Made by a program: the position numbers. A stretch of DNA of 64,000 nucleotides from Candidatus Bathyarchaeota archaeon (GTDB taxonomy: Archaea; Thermoproteota; Bathyarchaeia; TCS64): assembly GCA_963771885.1 (NCBI GenBank), contig CAVYVF010000023.1:704001-768000 (forward strand), in the 5' to 3' direction. Below, piece after piece: positions 24,001 through 30,000 of this stretch. Numbering within the stretch: the first letter of the stretch is position 1; every line of letters begins with the position of its first letter.

Positions 24001-27000
24001 TGCGCAGCGCCGATTATCTGGTCGGCGATGATCTCCTCGAAGGTCTTCCTGTTACCGAAGGTCTGCTCCTTTATGCCCCTCGAGATGAACCTGAGGGCGA
24101 GGTCGATCCTCCTCTGCGGGGAGATGTCGACCGCGAGGCGGTAGACGACGCCACCGTAGCCGATGCGCGTCGTGTCCTCGTTGGGGGCGCAGTTCTCAAC
24201 GGCTCGGACCAGCATCTCGATCGGGTTCCTCCCGCTCTTGACATTGACTATCTTGAAGGCCGTCCTCACAGCGTTGGTCACGCGTGGCTTGTCGCCGCCG
24301 CTGCTCCCAGGCTTGAGTATGCCGTTCACGAGGCGCTCCACGATACTCATCTCGCTCTTCTGGAACTTCCTGGCCTCGTGGCGACCACCGGAGTGGGGCA
24401 TGAAGACGGGGGCGACCTTTAGGTACCTCTTGAGGCCGGGGTCCCGGACCTCTATGTTCTCGAAGCTCCACTCGCCGAACAGCTTGATACCGCCTGTCCC
24501 CGCCGTAGTGGCCTCGATTGTTACTTCTGGTTCTTCGCTCACTTGGCCGAATCGCCTCGGATTGCAGAGGGGAAGAGTGGGAACGTGAATAAAAGGCTTA
24601 CCGAAGCGTGAACAACCTTTTAACCCCGCGTCCGGTCCCACTAGGCGAAATGTCCCTCAAGGACTACAAGCTCTCCTACATACTTCTATGTGTCATCGGA
24701 CTCGCCGCGATGTTCAGCACGAGCCTCGTAAACCCCCTGCTCTCGATATTCGCGAAGGAGATCGGCGCTGTCGGCGTCATGATAGGTTTCTCGGTCGCCG
24801 GTTACTGGGTCGCGAGGGTGCTCCTTGAAATACCGAGCGGCTTCATCTCGGCGCGCTACGGCTACTACATGCCTATGCTTCTGGGGCTTATCCTGACAAC
24901 CGCTGGCACGTTCTGGAACGCCTTCGTCACAGACCCCTACCAACTCATCCTCGCGCGCGCCCTGCAGGGTCTCGGGGCACCGCTATTCTTCGCCGTCTCC
25001 ATGACATTCATCGTCAACATGTTCAGCGCTGAAAAACGCGGCGCGGCGATGGGCCTCTTCCAAGGCGTCGAGTTCGGGGGCAGCATCCTCGGCTCGACGT
25101 TCAGCGGTTACATAATCACGGCGCTCGGCTTCCAAGGCGGCTTCTTCCTGTCAACGGCGCTCTGCGCCATAGCCGTCCTGCTCCTCGCCATACCCCCAAA
25201 TGTGAGGCACGAATCCTCGACGATGCCTAAGATTCCCGCCATGAAGCTCTCCTCACTCCCCAAGGTTTTCAAGAACAAGATACTCATCATAGTCTCCTTC
25301 GCGACCCTCATGGAGTTCGTGCTCAGCAGCGGCGTCATCTACACTATCTACCCACTCTTCGCTAAGGAGAACCTCGGCATGTCACTTACCGATATCGGCC
25401 TCATAATGGGCGCCAGGTCACTCGGCTACGTCATCGCGATGCTGATAATGGGTTCAATAGCCGACAGGATCGGGAGGAAGCCCGTCCTACTCTTCGGCAT
25501 GGCGAGCACCGCCGTCATGGCGGTCGTGCTCAACTTCGCCTCGGGGATCTTCATGACCGCCGCCGTCCTCTTCTGCATAGGTATCACGACGGGCGCCATC
25601 TGGATAGTCTGTCCCGTCATAGCCGCGGAGGCAGTTGAGCCCGAGAACAGGGGTGCAGCCATCGGCACCTATAGGACCTTCTTCGACTTAGGCTCCATCT
25701 TCGGCCCGATAATTATGACATACATCATGGGCGTATACGGCATAACGACATGCTTCTACCTCTCAGCTGTCCTGTTGGCGATAGCCTTCGTGCCGTGCCT
25801 CAAGGTTGAGGAGACGAAAAAGATCGGGACCGTCGTGGTCCATTAAGAACTTGAACGACCCGTTTTACCGGGTAGGCTTCTGAATCTTGCCGACGACCAA
25901 GAGGTTGAGCGGCACACCGTTCACTGCGTTCACCTTGTAGCGTACGCCGGGAATGTCGCCCATCGAGCGGCTGCGGGGGCCGCTGATGCCCTCGATCGTG
26001 ACCTCGTCGTGCTCGTCGACGAAGTTCAGTGCGCCGTCGCCTGGCAGGAAAGCCGTGGCGAGGCGGCCGTTCTTGATGATCTGGATGCGAACACACTTGC
26101 GAATTGCGGAGTTTGGCTGCTTGGACTCGACGCCGACCTTTTGGAGTACGATACCCCTACCCATGGGTGCGCCCTGGAGTAGGTCCTTCTTCTGCGCCTT
26201 GCGCCTCATGCGTAGGACAAAGTCCTTGCTCTTGTACCGCATGTTTCTCCTGTTATTCTTGAGCCTGCGGCCGGCGAACATACCGTTAGTCAAGCGATTC
26301 TCCACCTTCCGGTGTCGGCTGGTATGTTTAAACTTTACGCATTAACGCTTGGACGCTCTCACGAGTGTGCTGAGCCGGGGGATAAGTTCCGAAACCGCGC
26401 GGATCAGTATGGTTTATACATGTGAACCGAACCTTTTTATCCACCATCCAAGTCGGATTGAGTAAGGAGATTAGATAAATGAGCGGAAAAGAGAAGCCAC
26501 ACATTAACCTGATCATCGTAGGACACGTTGATCACGGTAAGAGCACAAGCATCGGCCACCTGTTCTACGACGCCGGCGCGATCGACGAGAAGTACGCGAA
26601 GGACATGGAGGCAGAGGCGAAGTCCATCGGCAAGGAGTCCTTCAAGTACGCATGGCTCCTCGACAGGCTCAAGGAGGAGCGCGAACGTGGTATCACGATC
26701 GACCTCGCCTTCTACAAGCTCGAGACGGCGAAGAACTTCTTCACCGTCATCGACAGCCCCGGCCACCGCGACTTCGTCAAGAACATGGTCACGGGCGCGA
26801 GCCAGGCAGACGGCGCCATCCTCCTCATCTCCGCCAAGAAGGGCGAGTTTGAGGCAGGGACCAACCCAGGCGGCCAGACGCGTGAGCACGCCTTCCTCGC
26901 TAAGACGCTGGGCGTAAACCAGATCGTCGTCGCCGTCAACAAGATGGACGACCCCACCGTAGCCTGGAGCGAGCAGCGCTTCCAGGAGGTAAGGGACGGC

Positions 27001-30000
27001 GTCACGCGCCTCCTCCAGATGGTCGGCTACGACACCAGCAAGACCAACTTCGTCCCCACCAGCGGCTGGGGCGGCGACAACCTCGTCAAGAGGAGCGCCA
27101 ACATGGCCTGGTACAAGGGCCCGACACTCATCGAGGCACTCGACAACTTCGTCATGCCCGCAAAGCCAACCGACAAGCCCCTCCGCCTGCCCGTTCAGGA
27201 AGTCTACACCATCCGTGGTGTCGGCACAACCCCAGTCGGGAAGGTAGAGACCGGCGTGCTCAAGGTAGGCGACGACATCGTCTTCATGCCCAGCGGCGAG
27301 AAGGGGAAGGTCAACAGCATCGAGACCCACTACACGCGCCTAGAGAAGGCGGGCCCAGGTGACAACATCGGCTTCAACGTCAAAGGCGTAGACCGCGAAA
27401 AGGTAAAGCGCGGCGAGGTCGCCAGTCACACCAACACCCCCTGCAAGGTCGCTAAGTCGTTCAAGGGCAGGATCTTCATAATCCACCACCCAACGGCGGT
27501 CGGCCCAGGCTACACCCCCGTACTACACATCCACACCGCCCAAGTCGCGGTCAAGTTCGAGGCAATCGAGGCCAAACTCGACCCTAGGACTGGACAGGTA
27601 GTGGAGCAGAACCCCACCTACCTCAGGACCGGTGAGGCGGCGATAGTAAAGTTCACGCCCCTCATCCCGATCGCCATCGAGGCGTTCAAGGACTTCCCAC
27701 AGCTCGGCAGGTTCGCCCTGCGCGACATGGGCACGACCATCGGCGCCGGCATCGTCCTCGAAGTCGAGAGCTAAACCCTCTCGCAACCCCTTTTTCGATA
27801 CATTTAAGTTCTCAGCCCACTGATGAGACGGGGAATAGGTATGGCGCGACGCGCACGCATCAAGCTCACGAGTGCCGACACCCAGAAACTCGAGGGTGTC
27901 TGCGACGAGATCAGGGACATCGCACAGAAGATAGGCGTCAAACTTGTAGGACCCATACCACTACCCACGAAGAAACTCCTCGTCCCCACAAGGAGGACGC
28001 CCTGCGGCGACGGCAGCAAGACGTGGGACAAGTACGAGATGAGGGTACACAAGAGGCTCATCGAGATCGACGCCCGCGACCGCGTCATGCGCAGCATAAT
28101 GCGCATCCGTGTACCCAACGAAGTCTACATCGAGATGGAGATAAAGTAGCTCCACCTACGTCTTCTAGCGACGTTTTCTACCCCATTTAGGGCAAGTGTT
28201 TTTAACGACATTCGTTCAACGGTTATCCCTTCCAAGGAAGCGTCAAACTATGGGAAAGCGTGTCTTGGTCGCCCTCGGCGGGAACGCAATCAAGCAGCCC
28301 GACGAGAAAGGTACCTTCGAGGAACAGATGAAAAACGTCGAGACTGCCTCAAAACAGATAGCGCAGCTGGTGAGGCATGGCTACGAACTCGTCATCACAC
28401 ACGGCAACGGGCCTCAAGTGGGCAACCTCTCCATCCAACAAGAGGCGGCTGCTGACCAAGTGCCACCGCAGCCACTGGTCGTCCTCGGCGCGATGACGCA
28501 AGGCCAGATTGGCTACATGATGCAGCAGACCCTCCACAACATACTCGACGGCGACGGCAAGCAAGTCGCCACCATAGTCACGCAGGTGCTCGTCAGCCCA
28601 GAGGACCCCGACTTCCAGGACCCAACGAAGCCCGTCGGCCCATTCTACACGGAGGAGATCGCCAAGAAGCTCGCTGCTGAGCGCGGCTGGGTCGTCAAGA
28701 AGGTCCGCCCCACGGGTGACAAAACTTGGAGGCGTGTCGTGCCCTCACCCACGCCTCTCGGAATCGCCGAGGCGAAGGCGATCAGGACCATGGTCGAGGC
28801 GGGCATGATAGTTATAGCTTCGGGAGGAGGCGGCATACCCGTCTACAGGAACAAGTCGGGCAAACTGGAGGGCGTTGACGCAGTCATCGACAAAGACCGG
28901 GCGGGCGCAAAGCTCGCCGAAGAGGTCGGCTCAGACGTGCTCCTTATCCTCACCGACGTCGAGTATGCTATGATGGACTACGGTAAACCCACCCAGGCGC
29001 CGATACTAAAGATGACTGTCGCCGAGGCGAAGCAGCGCCTCAAGGAGGGTCACTTCGGCGCGGGCAGCATGGGCCCAAAGGTCGAGGCGGCGCTCGGCTT
29101 CGTAGAACGCGGCGGAGAGAGGGCGATAGTCACAAGCCTCGCCAAGGCAGTCGATGCCTTGGAGGGCAAGACCGGGACACACATAGTCCGCGCTTAGGCC
29201 TCCGTTGTATATCTAGCTAAAACCTCATTTTCAACCAATGAAACTAGGTTGAGATACTCACTCCCTTACTGACACAGCTCGGAGTAGGTGGCGTCGCGGG
29301 GCTCTGCACAGGGTATGCCCTGAAGAAGATGGGGAAGAACGTCGCCTTCATCGTTGGTATAATGTTCATAGGCCTAGAGCTGCTCGCCTACAAGGGTAAA
29401 ATCAACATCAACTACGACGCGCTCCAGCAGTGAGGGAGCGAGCTGTTCGGTCAGGTCGGTGCACTCGAGGGCGTGTTGACCCTTATCATCGCCAACCTGC
29501 CGTTTGCCGCCATCTTCCTCGTTGGGCTAGCCATCGGCCTTAAGATGGGTTGAGCCGCGCGCAATAGATCGTCTCGAAGAACAGCCTCTTCTCACCCAGA
29601 ATCTCCCAGTCGTAGTCGAACCTGTAACCCGTGAGCCCTGTCTCTGAGGAGTAGACTAGGAGTATGGAGCCGCCGGGTGAGAGGTGGTCGTGCGCCGCGG
29701 CGAGAAACCTCTCAATGACCTCGGCGCCCCTCTCGCCTCCTGCCCATGCTAAATCATCGAGACTTCCCTCCGAGGGGAGGTACGGCGCGTTGAATAGAAT
29801 CCAGTCGAAGCTCCCCTCAACCTTCTCGAAGAGGTCCGACTGTACAAAAGTGATCTTAGCGAGGACCCCCGCCTCAGCCGCCCTCCTCCCGGCGGCTTTA
29901 AGCGCCTCGGGGTTGATGTCCACGGCTACCACCTGCGTGACACTAGTCTTCTCCGCTGCCGTCACCGCCTGTATACCACTCCCCGTCCCCATGTCGAGCA

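Follow-up and report, generated by a model that had tools for sequence, protein, structure and literature searches.

All 79 genomes searched of the order TCS64, together with several other families of the same class, keep an ordinary-looking elongation factor aEF-1alpha without the exchange factor (GEF) aEF-1beta, whose gene (ef1b) has been lost at least two times. In accounts of archaeal and eukaryotic translation the exchange factor of EF1A counts as a constant component. According to passages of the 2014 survey by Atkinson et al. (PMC3938643), every archaeon has aEF1B, and an eEF1A naturally free of eEF1Balpha was yet to be reported; we found no prior report in the literature of an archaeal lineage without aEF-1beta.

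The aEF-1alpha gene of the genome studied (G000), that of an uncultured archaeon from sediment, lies at 26479..27774 on the forward strand of the window (the whole stretch of 64,000 nucleotides analyzed here). It is present, as the genome-wide survey's note had said, and intact, with an ATG start, 431 aa and the Pfam domains GTP_EFTU (PF00009, E 5.7e-54), GTP_EFTU_D2 (PF03144), GTP_EFTU_D3 (PF03143), and GTP-eEF1A_C (PF22594). Its neighbors are a divergent ribosomal protein S12 gene upstream (25865..26305, reverse strand; Ribosom_S12_S23, E 6.9e-41) and, just downstream, a co-oriented ribosomal protein S10 gene (27823..28149, forward strand; Ribosomal_S10, E 1.1e-29). The best solved relatives of the protein are archaeal aEF1A chains (3vmf_A, E 9e-184; 1jny_A from Saccharolobus solfataricus, E 3.7e-179), residues 5–430 align to aEF1A structures without gaps, and the canonical G1, G3, and G4 motifs are all found (GHVDHGKST, DSPGH, and NKMD). 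A search of the genome for further copies gave three other matches, all with E 3.6e-12 or weaker, and no second EF1A paralogue, so the gene is single-copy. In a tree of the aEF-1alpha sequences of the class, the protein and 29 others of the order make up one clade. Judged by these comparisons, it is orthologous to archaeal aEF1A and not a paralogue. The open frames of its relatives span 430–482 aa from stop to stop, figures that are upper bounds and whose spread reflects the position of the previous stop, not gene length.

With its three domains and G motifs, this aEF-1alpha resembles that of the canonical archaeal pair (e.g., in S. solfataricus), from which this genome and its order differ in missing the aEF-1beta gene. 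The assembly (2.46 Mb in 23 contigs, 92.24% complete, 6.66% contaminated) gave 0 candidates at E<=10 in a six-frame search with PF00736 (EF1_GNE) and 0 matches at E<=10 with TIGR00489 (4 candidates scored). Our own HMM, made with 12 aEF-1beta sequences from the class, found no aEF-1beta either when 46,043 ORFs (stop to stop, >=30 aa) were searched with --max, its best match having an E of 2.6 (9.5 bits). The claim made earlier for this genome, that it has no aEF-1beta, is borne out by all three models. The bacterial counterpart EF-Ts (PF00889) had 0 matches at E<=1. It is very unlikely that the genome still encodes, at another place, a highly diverged aEF-1beta homologue that profile HMMs fail to detect. 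The domain is indeed short (88 positions), and the aEF-1beta proteins of the class score 42–73 bits, lower than the 66–89 bits of the best listed phylum matches; however, two curated models yielded 0 candidates, the best of all ORFs stayed at 9.5 bits with every filter off, and the protein is well kept in the relatives that bear it, the 12 sequences aligned sharing an EEPIAFGL motif.

None of the order's 79 genomes, which represent 4 families and 15 genera, was over the PF00736 cut-off, and these include two single-contig assemblies (G011, 2.3 Mb; G021, 1.5 Mb) and one of six contigs (G072), in agreement with the order-wide absence claimed before. Sub-threshold matches appeared in six of these genomes (E 0.0096–0.128) and were rejected as aEF-1beta; they fall in different ORFs of 62–1031 aa and cover the profile partially, which also argues against a diverged homologue. 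Elsewhere the factor is near-universal, again as claimed, being found in 296/301 genomes of the phylum (>=90% complete) and in 100/109 genomes (>=85% complete) that belong to the class but not to the order, in a sample made up mostly of fragmented assemblies. The nine class genomes outside the order without a match gave nothing even at E<=10 (0/9). Some of the misses (G114, G170, and G184 in the class; G293, G299, and G394 in the phylum) are singletons in families that otherwise have ef1b, and look like assembly gaps, while in G094 cdc48 begins 144 nt from the contig end and the loss is unverified. Five genomes from four families of the class outside the order (f5, f7, f12, and f14), in turn, have a clean ef1b deletion. 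The survey's note had described the loss as shared by the order and put the gene in 22 of 22 other Bathyarchaeia. The loss is not limited to the order, however, and the 22/22 was a result of sampling, since ef1b is just as cleanly deleted at the syntenic junction in those four families.

This junction belongs to a conserved array, in ef1b-bearing relatives, of a small zinc finger (PF07754), ef1b, and cdc48. The gene lies <=1 kb upstream of cdc48 in 26/30 bearing genomes, and the zinc-finger gene directly upstream of ef1b in 18/23, a synteny both stronger and more precise than first described. Here the cdc48 orthologue occupies C7:44626-46803 and the upstream gene ends near C7:44537. The 87–96 nt before cdc48 carry a TTTATATT box and contain no ORF, reproducing the empty 96-nt slot reported earlier; this spacer is not a (CG)n run. 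An Fe-ADH gene followed by cdc48 after 81–98 nt is seen in this genome and in one genome from each of three other families of the order (G002, G007, and G008), and in the four families outside it the zinc finger adjoins cdc48 with 96–239 nt between them (G081, G091, G086, G096, and G079). None of the nine junctions (81–239 nt) keeps an ef1b relic, all six-frame profile scores being <0 bits where a bearing control reaches 107 bits, and an ancestral slot that is empty each time is a further point against a diverged homologue. Because contiguous sequence spans the expected ef1b position in nine genomes, these are deletions and not assembly gaps, and ef1b has truly, and cleanly, been deleted from the array. 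That the gene is there and was missed, the metagenome bins being incomplete, is hardly credible. This genome is 92% complete with 6.7% contamination, and the six singleton misses (three in the class, three in the phylum) and the contig end in G094 speak in its favor, but the reading is contradicted by the count of 0/79, with its one- and six-contig assemblies, and by those nine uninterrupted junctions.

A concatenated tree of aEF-1alpha and Cdc48 (39 genomes, 1161 columns, aEF-1alpha itself included) joins the order to f7 with support of 100/98 and makes f5 the sister of a bearing family (99/96), a position that Cdc48 alone does not settle. Placing every verified loser in a single clade is rejected on this tree (p-AU 0.007), therefore at least two losses of ef1b took place; the fewest changes are three, with the unverified G094 left out. 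The best explanation of these topologies would be one loss in the ancestor of the order and f7 and, independently, a loss in one or more further lineages of the class.

Passages of PMC3938643 list the yeast eEF1A bypass alleles R164K, T22S, A112T, and A117V (Ozturk and Kinzy, 2008), and further bypass routes, namely NKMD-motif alleles (Carr-Schmid, 1999) and eEF1A over-expression (Kinzy and Woolford, 1995), are mentioned there or in PMC1885216. The yeast forms show that EF1A can support life without a GEF, as would be the case here, but none of the four substitutions has an equivalent: at T23, A113, S118, and R167 the order does not differ from the losers outside it or from 53 bearing sequences. 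The P-loop (G1) GHVDHGKST, residues 15–23 (26521..26547, forward strand), is canonical with T23 matching yeast T22, and by column counts neither S22 nor T23 varies in any of the four sequence groups compared. No altered NKMD was found in the order either, the G4 motif at residues 154–157 (26938..26949, forward strand) being intact in 30/30 sequences; SKMD occurs only in the losers G079 and G094, of another clade, and TKMD or SKID in eight bearing relatives. No substitution is common to all loser lineages, which together with the unchanged bypass sites and NKMD of the order is an observation against unaided GDP/GTP exchange in these lineages.

Several positions at the presumed interface do vary. 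According to passages of PMC3938643, yeast D35 stabilizes the loop that contacts eEF1Balpha, the DIALWK loop hydrogen-bonds eEF1Balpha, and G255, corresponding to K270 of EFL, is a site of difference between eEF1A and EFL; Soares (2009; PMC2712093) lists 26 eEF1Balpha-contact residues, six of them named in its text passages. Counterparts of the three sites lie on the forward strand of the window at D36 (26584..26586), at DLAFYK, residues 75–80 (26701..26718), and at R246 (27214..27216). The first is D in this genome and S in 14, P in 6, and D in 9 sequences of the order; the column varies as well in f7, f5, and f16, and the two-gene tree places f16 together with f24 and f22. As a convergent signature of the losers its relaxation was rejected, P or S being found also in three bearing genomes of f21, f22, and f24, and it may be kept as only a hint of convergence. 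At the DLAFYK site the order has Y/F versus W/L/Q/V/M in bearing lineages. R246 is R or K in 30/30 sequences of the order and T in 22/23 bearing sequences of the class, yet we dropped it as an EFL-like compensating change because 6/30 phylum families with ef1b have K at this site, as does the solved chain 3wy9. Likewise I351, F333, V358, and R331 were rejected as order-specific, since many bearing families from other classes have them too. In the switch II motif (G3) DSPGH, residues 92–96 (26752..26766, forward strand), column counts give S93 in 11/29 order sequences with a letter there and A in most others. Overall, three of 18 order-shifted columns fall within the 20 sites of PMC3938643 (D35, DIALWK, Q249/D250/G255, and DCHTAHI; hypergeometric p 0.045), with K246, I/V351, and non-D36 also present in bearing lineages.

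Over 177 columns conserved in >=90% of the 53 bearing sequences, the latter have a median of 4 deviations (range 0–21), the early-branching members of the order 1 (f3), 3–4 (f2), and 6 (f4), and the losers outside the order 3–5. Since early-branching and outside losers deviate within the bearing range (1–6 vs. 0–21), their aEF-1alpha looks canonical and no retooling seems to have been needed for the loss. Family f1, which includes this genome, has 7–18 deviations, which may reflect adaptation, relaxation or plain drift.

The nearest precedent is in eukaryotes, where EFL-bearing lineages lost eEF1Balpha according to passages of Atkinson et al. (2014; PMC3938643). Both are lineage-wide losses of the EF1A exchange factor known from genome surveys, in both the delivery GTPase is presumed to recharge itself, and the interface sites D35, W of DIALWK, and G255 vary here too. 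Unlike EFL, which is a paralogue with insertions that replaced eEF1A, the aEF-1alpha kept here is orthologous, of the same length, in one clade, and without a paralogue in the order; the 431-aa ORF is not a distinct EFL-type paralogue with conserved insertions.

The reading we favor is that unaided GDP/GTP exchange is probably enough for the aEF-1alpha of these lineages, without a dedicated exchange factor. Once ef1b had been excised from between zinc finger and cdc48, with the orthologous aEF-1alpha kept, spontaneous GDP release driven by the cellular excess of GTP could keep protein synthesis going at a low rate, because EF1A-type factors have similar affinities for GDP and GTP and hold GDP independently of Mg2+. 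We infer that such exchange is fast enough and that no other protein has the role. IF2/aIF5B and EF-G/EF-2 also work without a GEF. SelB is a further translational GTPase of this kind (passages of PMC3938643). The spontaneous exchange proposed here would resemble that of all these GTPases, which differ in being other paralogues with intrinsically low GDP affinity.

Further observations run against unaided exchange, the slow spontaneous koff of rabbit eEF1A2 (5.6e-4 per s) and the essentiality ascribed to eEF1Balpha in source passages on yeast, although yeast survives without it when eEF1A is over-expressed or mutated, to judge from reference titles. Both, along with the near-universality of the factor (296/301 phylum genomes), would favor a non-orthologous displacement, in which the exchange factor is an unrelated or unrecognizably remote protein, such as a member of a novel family or a moonlighting protein, for instance one that, like aIF2alpha, has a fold resembling eEF1Balpha. 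The survey's note had rightly set unaided release and a substitute factor as the two alternatives. A substitute is also considered for EFL in passages of Atkinson et al. (2014; PMC3938643), which point to the structural similarity of eIF2alpha, and the 7–18 deviations in f1 might have arisen as adaptation to a different partner. We consider displacement unlikely, however: there is no candidate gene at the deleted slot or beside aEF-1alpha, each of at least two independent losses would need a substitute already in place, and the early-branching losers have a canonical aEF-1alpha. The specific course in which a new non-homologous GEF or a moonlighting protein took over from aEF-1beta, making the canonical factor dispensable and allowing its repeated deletion, is doubtful still; if true, non-orthologous displacement would have reached the core machinery of elongation in archaeal translation.

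The loser and bearer sister lineages, with 59–67% identical aEF-1alpha, are natural pairs for asking what makes EF1A dependent on a GEF, and whether very slow, energy-limited growth relaxes that need. EF1_GNE is possibly among the marker genes used in completeness estimates. If so, genomes without ef1b are systematically under-scored.

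The aEF-1alpha gene lies on the plus strand of the window (26479..27774) and opens with ATG, encoding a 431-aa ORF in which domains 2 and 3, together with the EF-Tu-type G domain and the C-terminal model of eEF1A, are all matched and the G1 (GHVDHGKST), G3 (DSPGH) and G4 (NKMD) motifs are all intact. Its closest solved structures are archaeal aEF-1alpha chains (3vmf_A, E 9e-184; 1jny_A, E 3.7e-179), with yeast eEF1A (1f60_A) matched at E 2e-149. It is the sole close copy in the source genome, the remaining three matches having E 3.6e-12 or weaker. The gene is flanked by rpS12, divergent, and by rpS10, on the same strand. 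The usual gene string is S12-S7-EF-2-EF-1alpha-S10, and it is broken in the window because rpS7 and rpS12 are on the minus strand, divergent from aEF-1alpha, with a plus-strand MFS transporter gene interposed between them (23931-26305). The single weak EF-2-sized match of the genome (a 720-aa frame) is on another contig, C2.

The source genome (2.46 Mb in 23 contigs, completeness 92.24%, contamination 6.66%) yielded no candidates for the exchange factor aEF-1beta with PF00736 and no matches with TIGR00489, both at E<=10. An HMM built from 12 same-class aEF-1beta sequences and run unfiltered on 46,043 stop-to-stop ORFs of at least 30 aa gave a top match of only E 2.6 and 9.5 bits. The genome-wide survey's note had described aEF-1alpha as kept and aEF-1beta as missing, and this holds, with an intact ORF for the first and three profiles without a match for the second. 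The same note had claimed a loss common to the whole order, and indeed none of 79 order genomes (4 families, f1 to f4, and 15 genera), among them two single-contig assemblies (2.3 and 1.5 Mb) plus one of 6 contigs, reached the cut-off. Six weak matches in the order (E 0.0096-0.128) fell in different ORFs of 62-1031 aa and covered the profile in part only. Among class genomes at least 85% complete, the aEF-1beta gene (ef1b) was present in 100/151, i.e., 0/42 within the order and 100/109 outside it. In the phylum it was present in 296/301 genomes at least 90% complete, the exceptions being the source genome, one order member and three singletons from otherwise bearing families. The nine class genomes outside the order without a match gave none even at E<=10. 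For G114, G170 and G184 (85-88% complete), whose families otherwise carry the gene, gaps in the assembly probably explain the misses. The remaining six come from f5, f7, f12 (two genomes), f14 and f16, families in which every genome searched was without a match. The loss is thus order-wide as proposed, and it is not confined to the order, since f5, f7, f12 and f14 also lack ef1b. Literature searches, judged by their listings, turned up no account of an archaeon lacking aEF-1beta; according to Atkinson et al. (PMC3938643), all archaea have aEF1B.

In bearing relatives, a small zinc-finger gene (PF07754, HVO_2753-like) is immediately upstream of ef1b in 18/23 genomes, and cdc48 lies at most 1 kb downstream on the same strand in 26/30, followed by an ORF of ~76 aa and a FEN1-type nuclease gene. 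The survey had placed ef1b upstream of cdc48 in relatives, which these counts bear out, and the equivalent slot of the source genome is an empty spacer. Here an Fe-ADH-family gene comes before the cdc48 orthologue (contig C7, 66% identity to the cdc48 of a bearing genome), and the 87-96 nt spacer between the two contains a TTTATATT box and zero ORFs; the same junction, 81-98 nt long, is seen in members of the other three families of the order. Five genomes outside the order without ef1b (G081 of f7, G091 of f14, G086 and G096 of f12, and G079 of f5) keep the zinc-finger gene, adjoining cdc48 with a gap of 96-239 nt. The junction of G094 (f16) was left out of this set and is not assessable because its cdc48 begins only 144 nt from the contig end. 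When the ef1b profile was run on nine loser junctions in all forward frames, every score was below 0 bits, against 107 bits for a bearing control junction. The cdc48 junctions being contiguous and empty, the absence of ef1b is therefore a deletion, and the deletion of this near-universal translation factor gene is real, clean and repeated.

The zinc-finger gene of the source genome (PF07754) sits apart from cdc48, at C23:877388-877591, with no ef1b-like sequence beside it in that neighbourhood. It follows a 392-aa gene and is convergent with apparent peptidyl-tRNA hydrolase and aspartyl-tRNA synthetase genes, identified by eye. Downstream of cdc48, the gene for the FEN1-type nuclease is broken into two ORFs that differ in frame (C7:47036-48072; 11037..12079 of the extracted locus L091), and a second, intact homologue is located at C23:532639-533655. 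In G011, a single-contig order member with an intact aEF-1alpha, there were zero Cdc48 matches at E<=1e-100 among 7 candidates scored; the assembly may be rich in frameshifts, or the orthologue may be diverged or missing.

The order forms a single clade in the aEF-1alpha tree (SH-aLRT 94), and the Cdc48 tree places f7 as its sister (support 99). A concatenated tree of both proteins (39 genomes, 1161 columns) groups the order with f7 (100/98), f5 with a bearing family (99/96) and f16 with the bearing f24 (100/99), the positions of f12 and f14 being unresolved. On this tree at least 3 changes are needed if G094 is excluded and 4 if it is included; aEF-1alpha itself is one of the two genes, and Cdc48 alone leaves f5 unresolved. 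The best tree with all verified losers in one group was rejected (p-AU 0.007), for a group defined post hoc with the tree already seen. We conclude from these phylogenies that at least two independent losses of ef1b took place. In G111, a single-contig bearing genome of f24 whose sister is G094, in which no ef1b was found, codon 72 of the ef1b gene (L154 1090-1380) is an in-frame TAA, beyond which the residues remain well conserved (47.8 bits); either an ongoing loss or a sequencing error may account for it.

In aEF-1alpha, twenty columns (source genome numbering) set the order apart from 23 ef1b-bearing sequences of the class. Three of them, the W of DIALWK, G255 and C361 of DCHTAHI, are among the eEF1Balpha-contacting sites listed as differing in EFL, the GEF-less EF1A paralogue of eukaryotes, by Atkinson et al. 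(PMC3938643). As loss-specific residues most of the order-distinguishing ones were rejected, being unremarkable once 30 bearing families of other classes had joined the comparison: column 246 has K in 6/30 of these (and in the solved chain 3wy9), I/V at column 351 in 21/30 and F at column 333 in 12/30. The overlap of 3 between 18 order-shifted columns and 20 Atkinson-listed interface sites (hypergeometric p 0.045) is no more than suggestive. Position D36 (yeast D35) holds D in 48/52 bearing sequences and varies in the order (S in 14, P in 6, D in 9), with T in f7 and E in f5; P or S is found there in three bearing genomes too (families f21, f22 and f24). The four yeast bypass sites named by Atkinson 2014 (PMC3938643) show zero change in any group, and NKMD is unaltered in 30/30 order sequences. 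Over 177 columns at least 90% conserved among 53 bearing sequences, the median number of deviating columns in these is 4 (range 0-21); the number is 1 (f3), 3-4 (f2) and 6 (f4) in early-branching members of the order, 3-5 in outside losers and 7-18 only in family f1, which includes the source genome. The counts of early-branching and outside losers are low, and therefore the loss did not need a re-tooled aEF-1alpha; the additional divergence in f1 arose later. The branch after the f3 split within the order measures 0.13 in the aEF-1alpha tree vs 0.075 in the Cdc48 tree, end branches being longer overall in Cdc48 (median 0.14 vs 0.10), which suggests a burst of aEF-1alpha change after the loss, in two trees that differ in taxon sets.

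The best-supported reading is unaided recharging, in which aEF-1alpha of the loser lineages would exchange GDP for GTP by itself. It is favoured because of established family properties and yeast bypass results. GDP and GTP affinities are similar in the EF1A family and GDP binding is Mg2+-independent, properties that may secure function 'in case of GEF deficiency' according to Crepin et al. (PMC4227793), and yeast eEF1A can reportedly bypass the GEF (PMC3938643 and reference titles). A non-homologous substitute exchange factor acting on aEF-1alpha is a rather unlikely alternative, its main argument being the slow koff reported for eEF1A2 (5.6e-4 per s). With this value and assumed inputs of 1e4-1e5 factor molecules and a ~1e8-residue proteome, a rough estimate gives 5-50 residues delivered per second and a proteome rebuilt in weeks to months; an eEF1A2-like koff would fit only very slow growth.

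Elsewhere in the class, TKMD, SKMD or SKID replaces NKMD at aEF-1alpha column 154 in 10/29 genomes outside the order (loci for this observation: L030, L032, L034, L035, L037, L039, L043, L044, L045, L047, L125 and L129). Both losers of that G4-variant clade, G079 and G094, have SKMD, and a non-NKMD G4 motif is also seen in 2/30 other phylum families. Yeast alleles of the NKMD motif reportedly reduce the need for exchange. A second EF1A-family GTPase (416 aa), with all three domains and 38-44% identity to aEF-1alpha, is absent from the source genome and occurs in four class genomes, two of the loser family f12 (G096 and G086) and two of bearing families (G159, at L048 1498-2745 on the minus strand, and G124).
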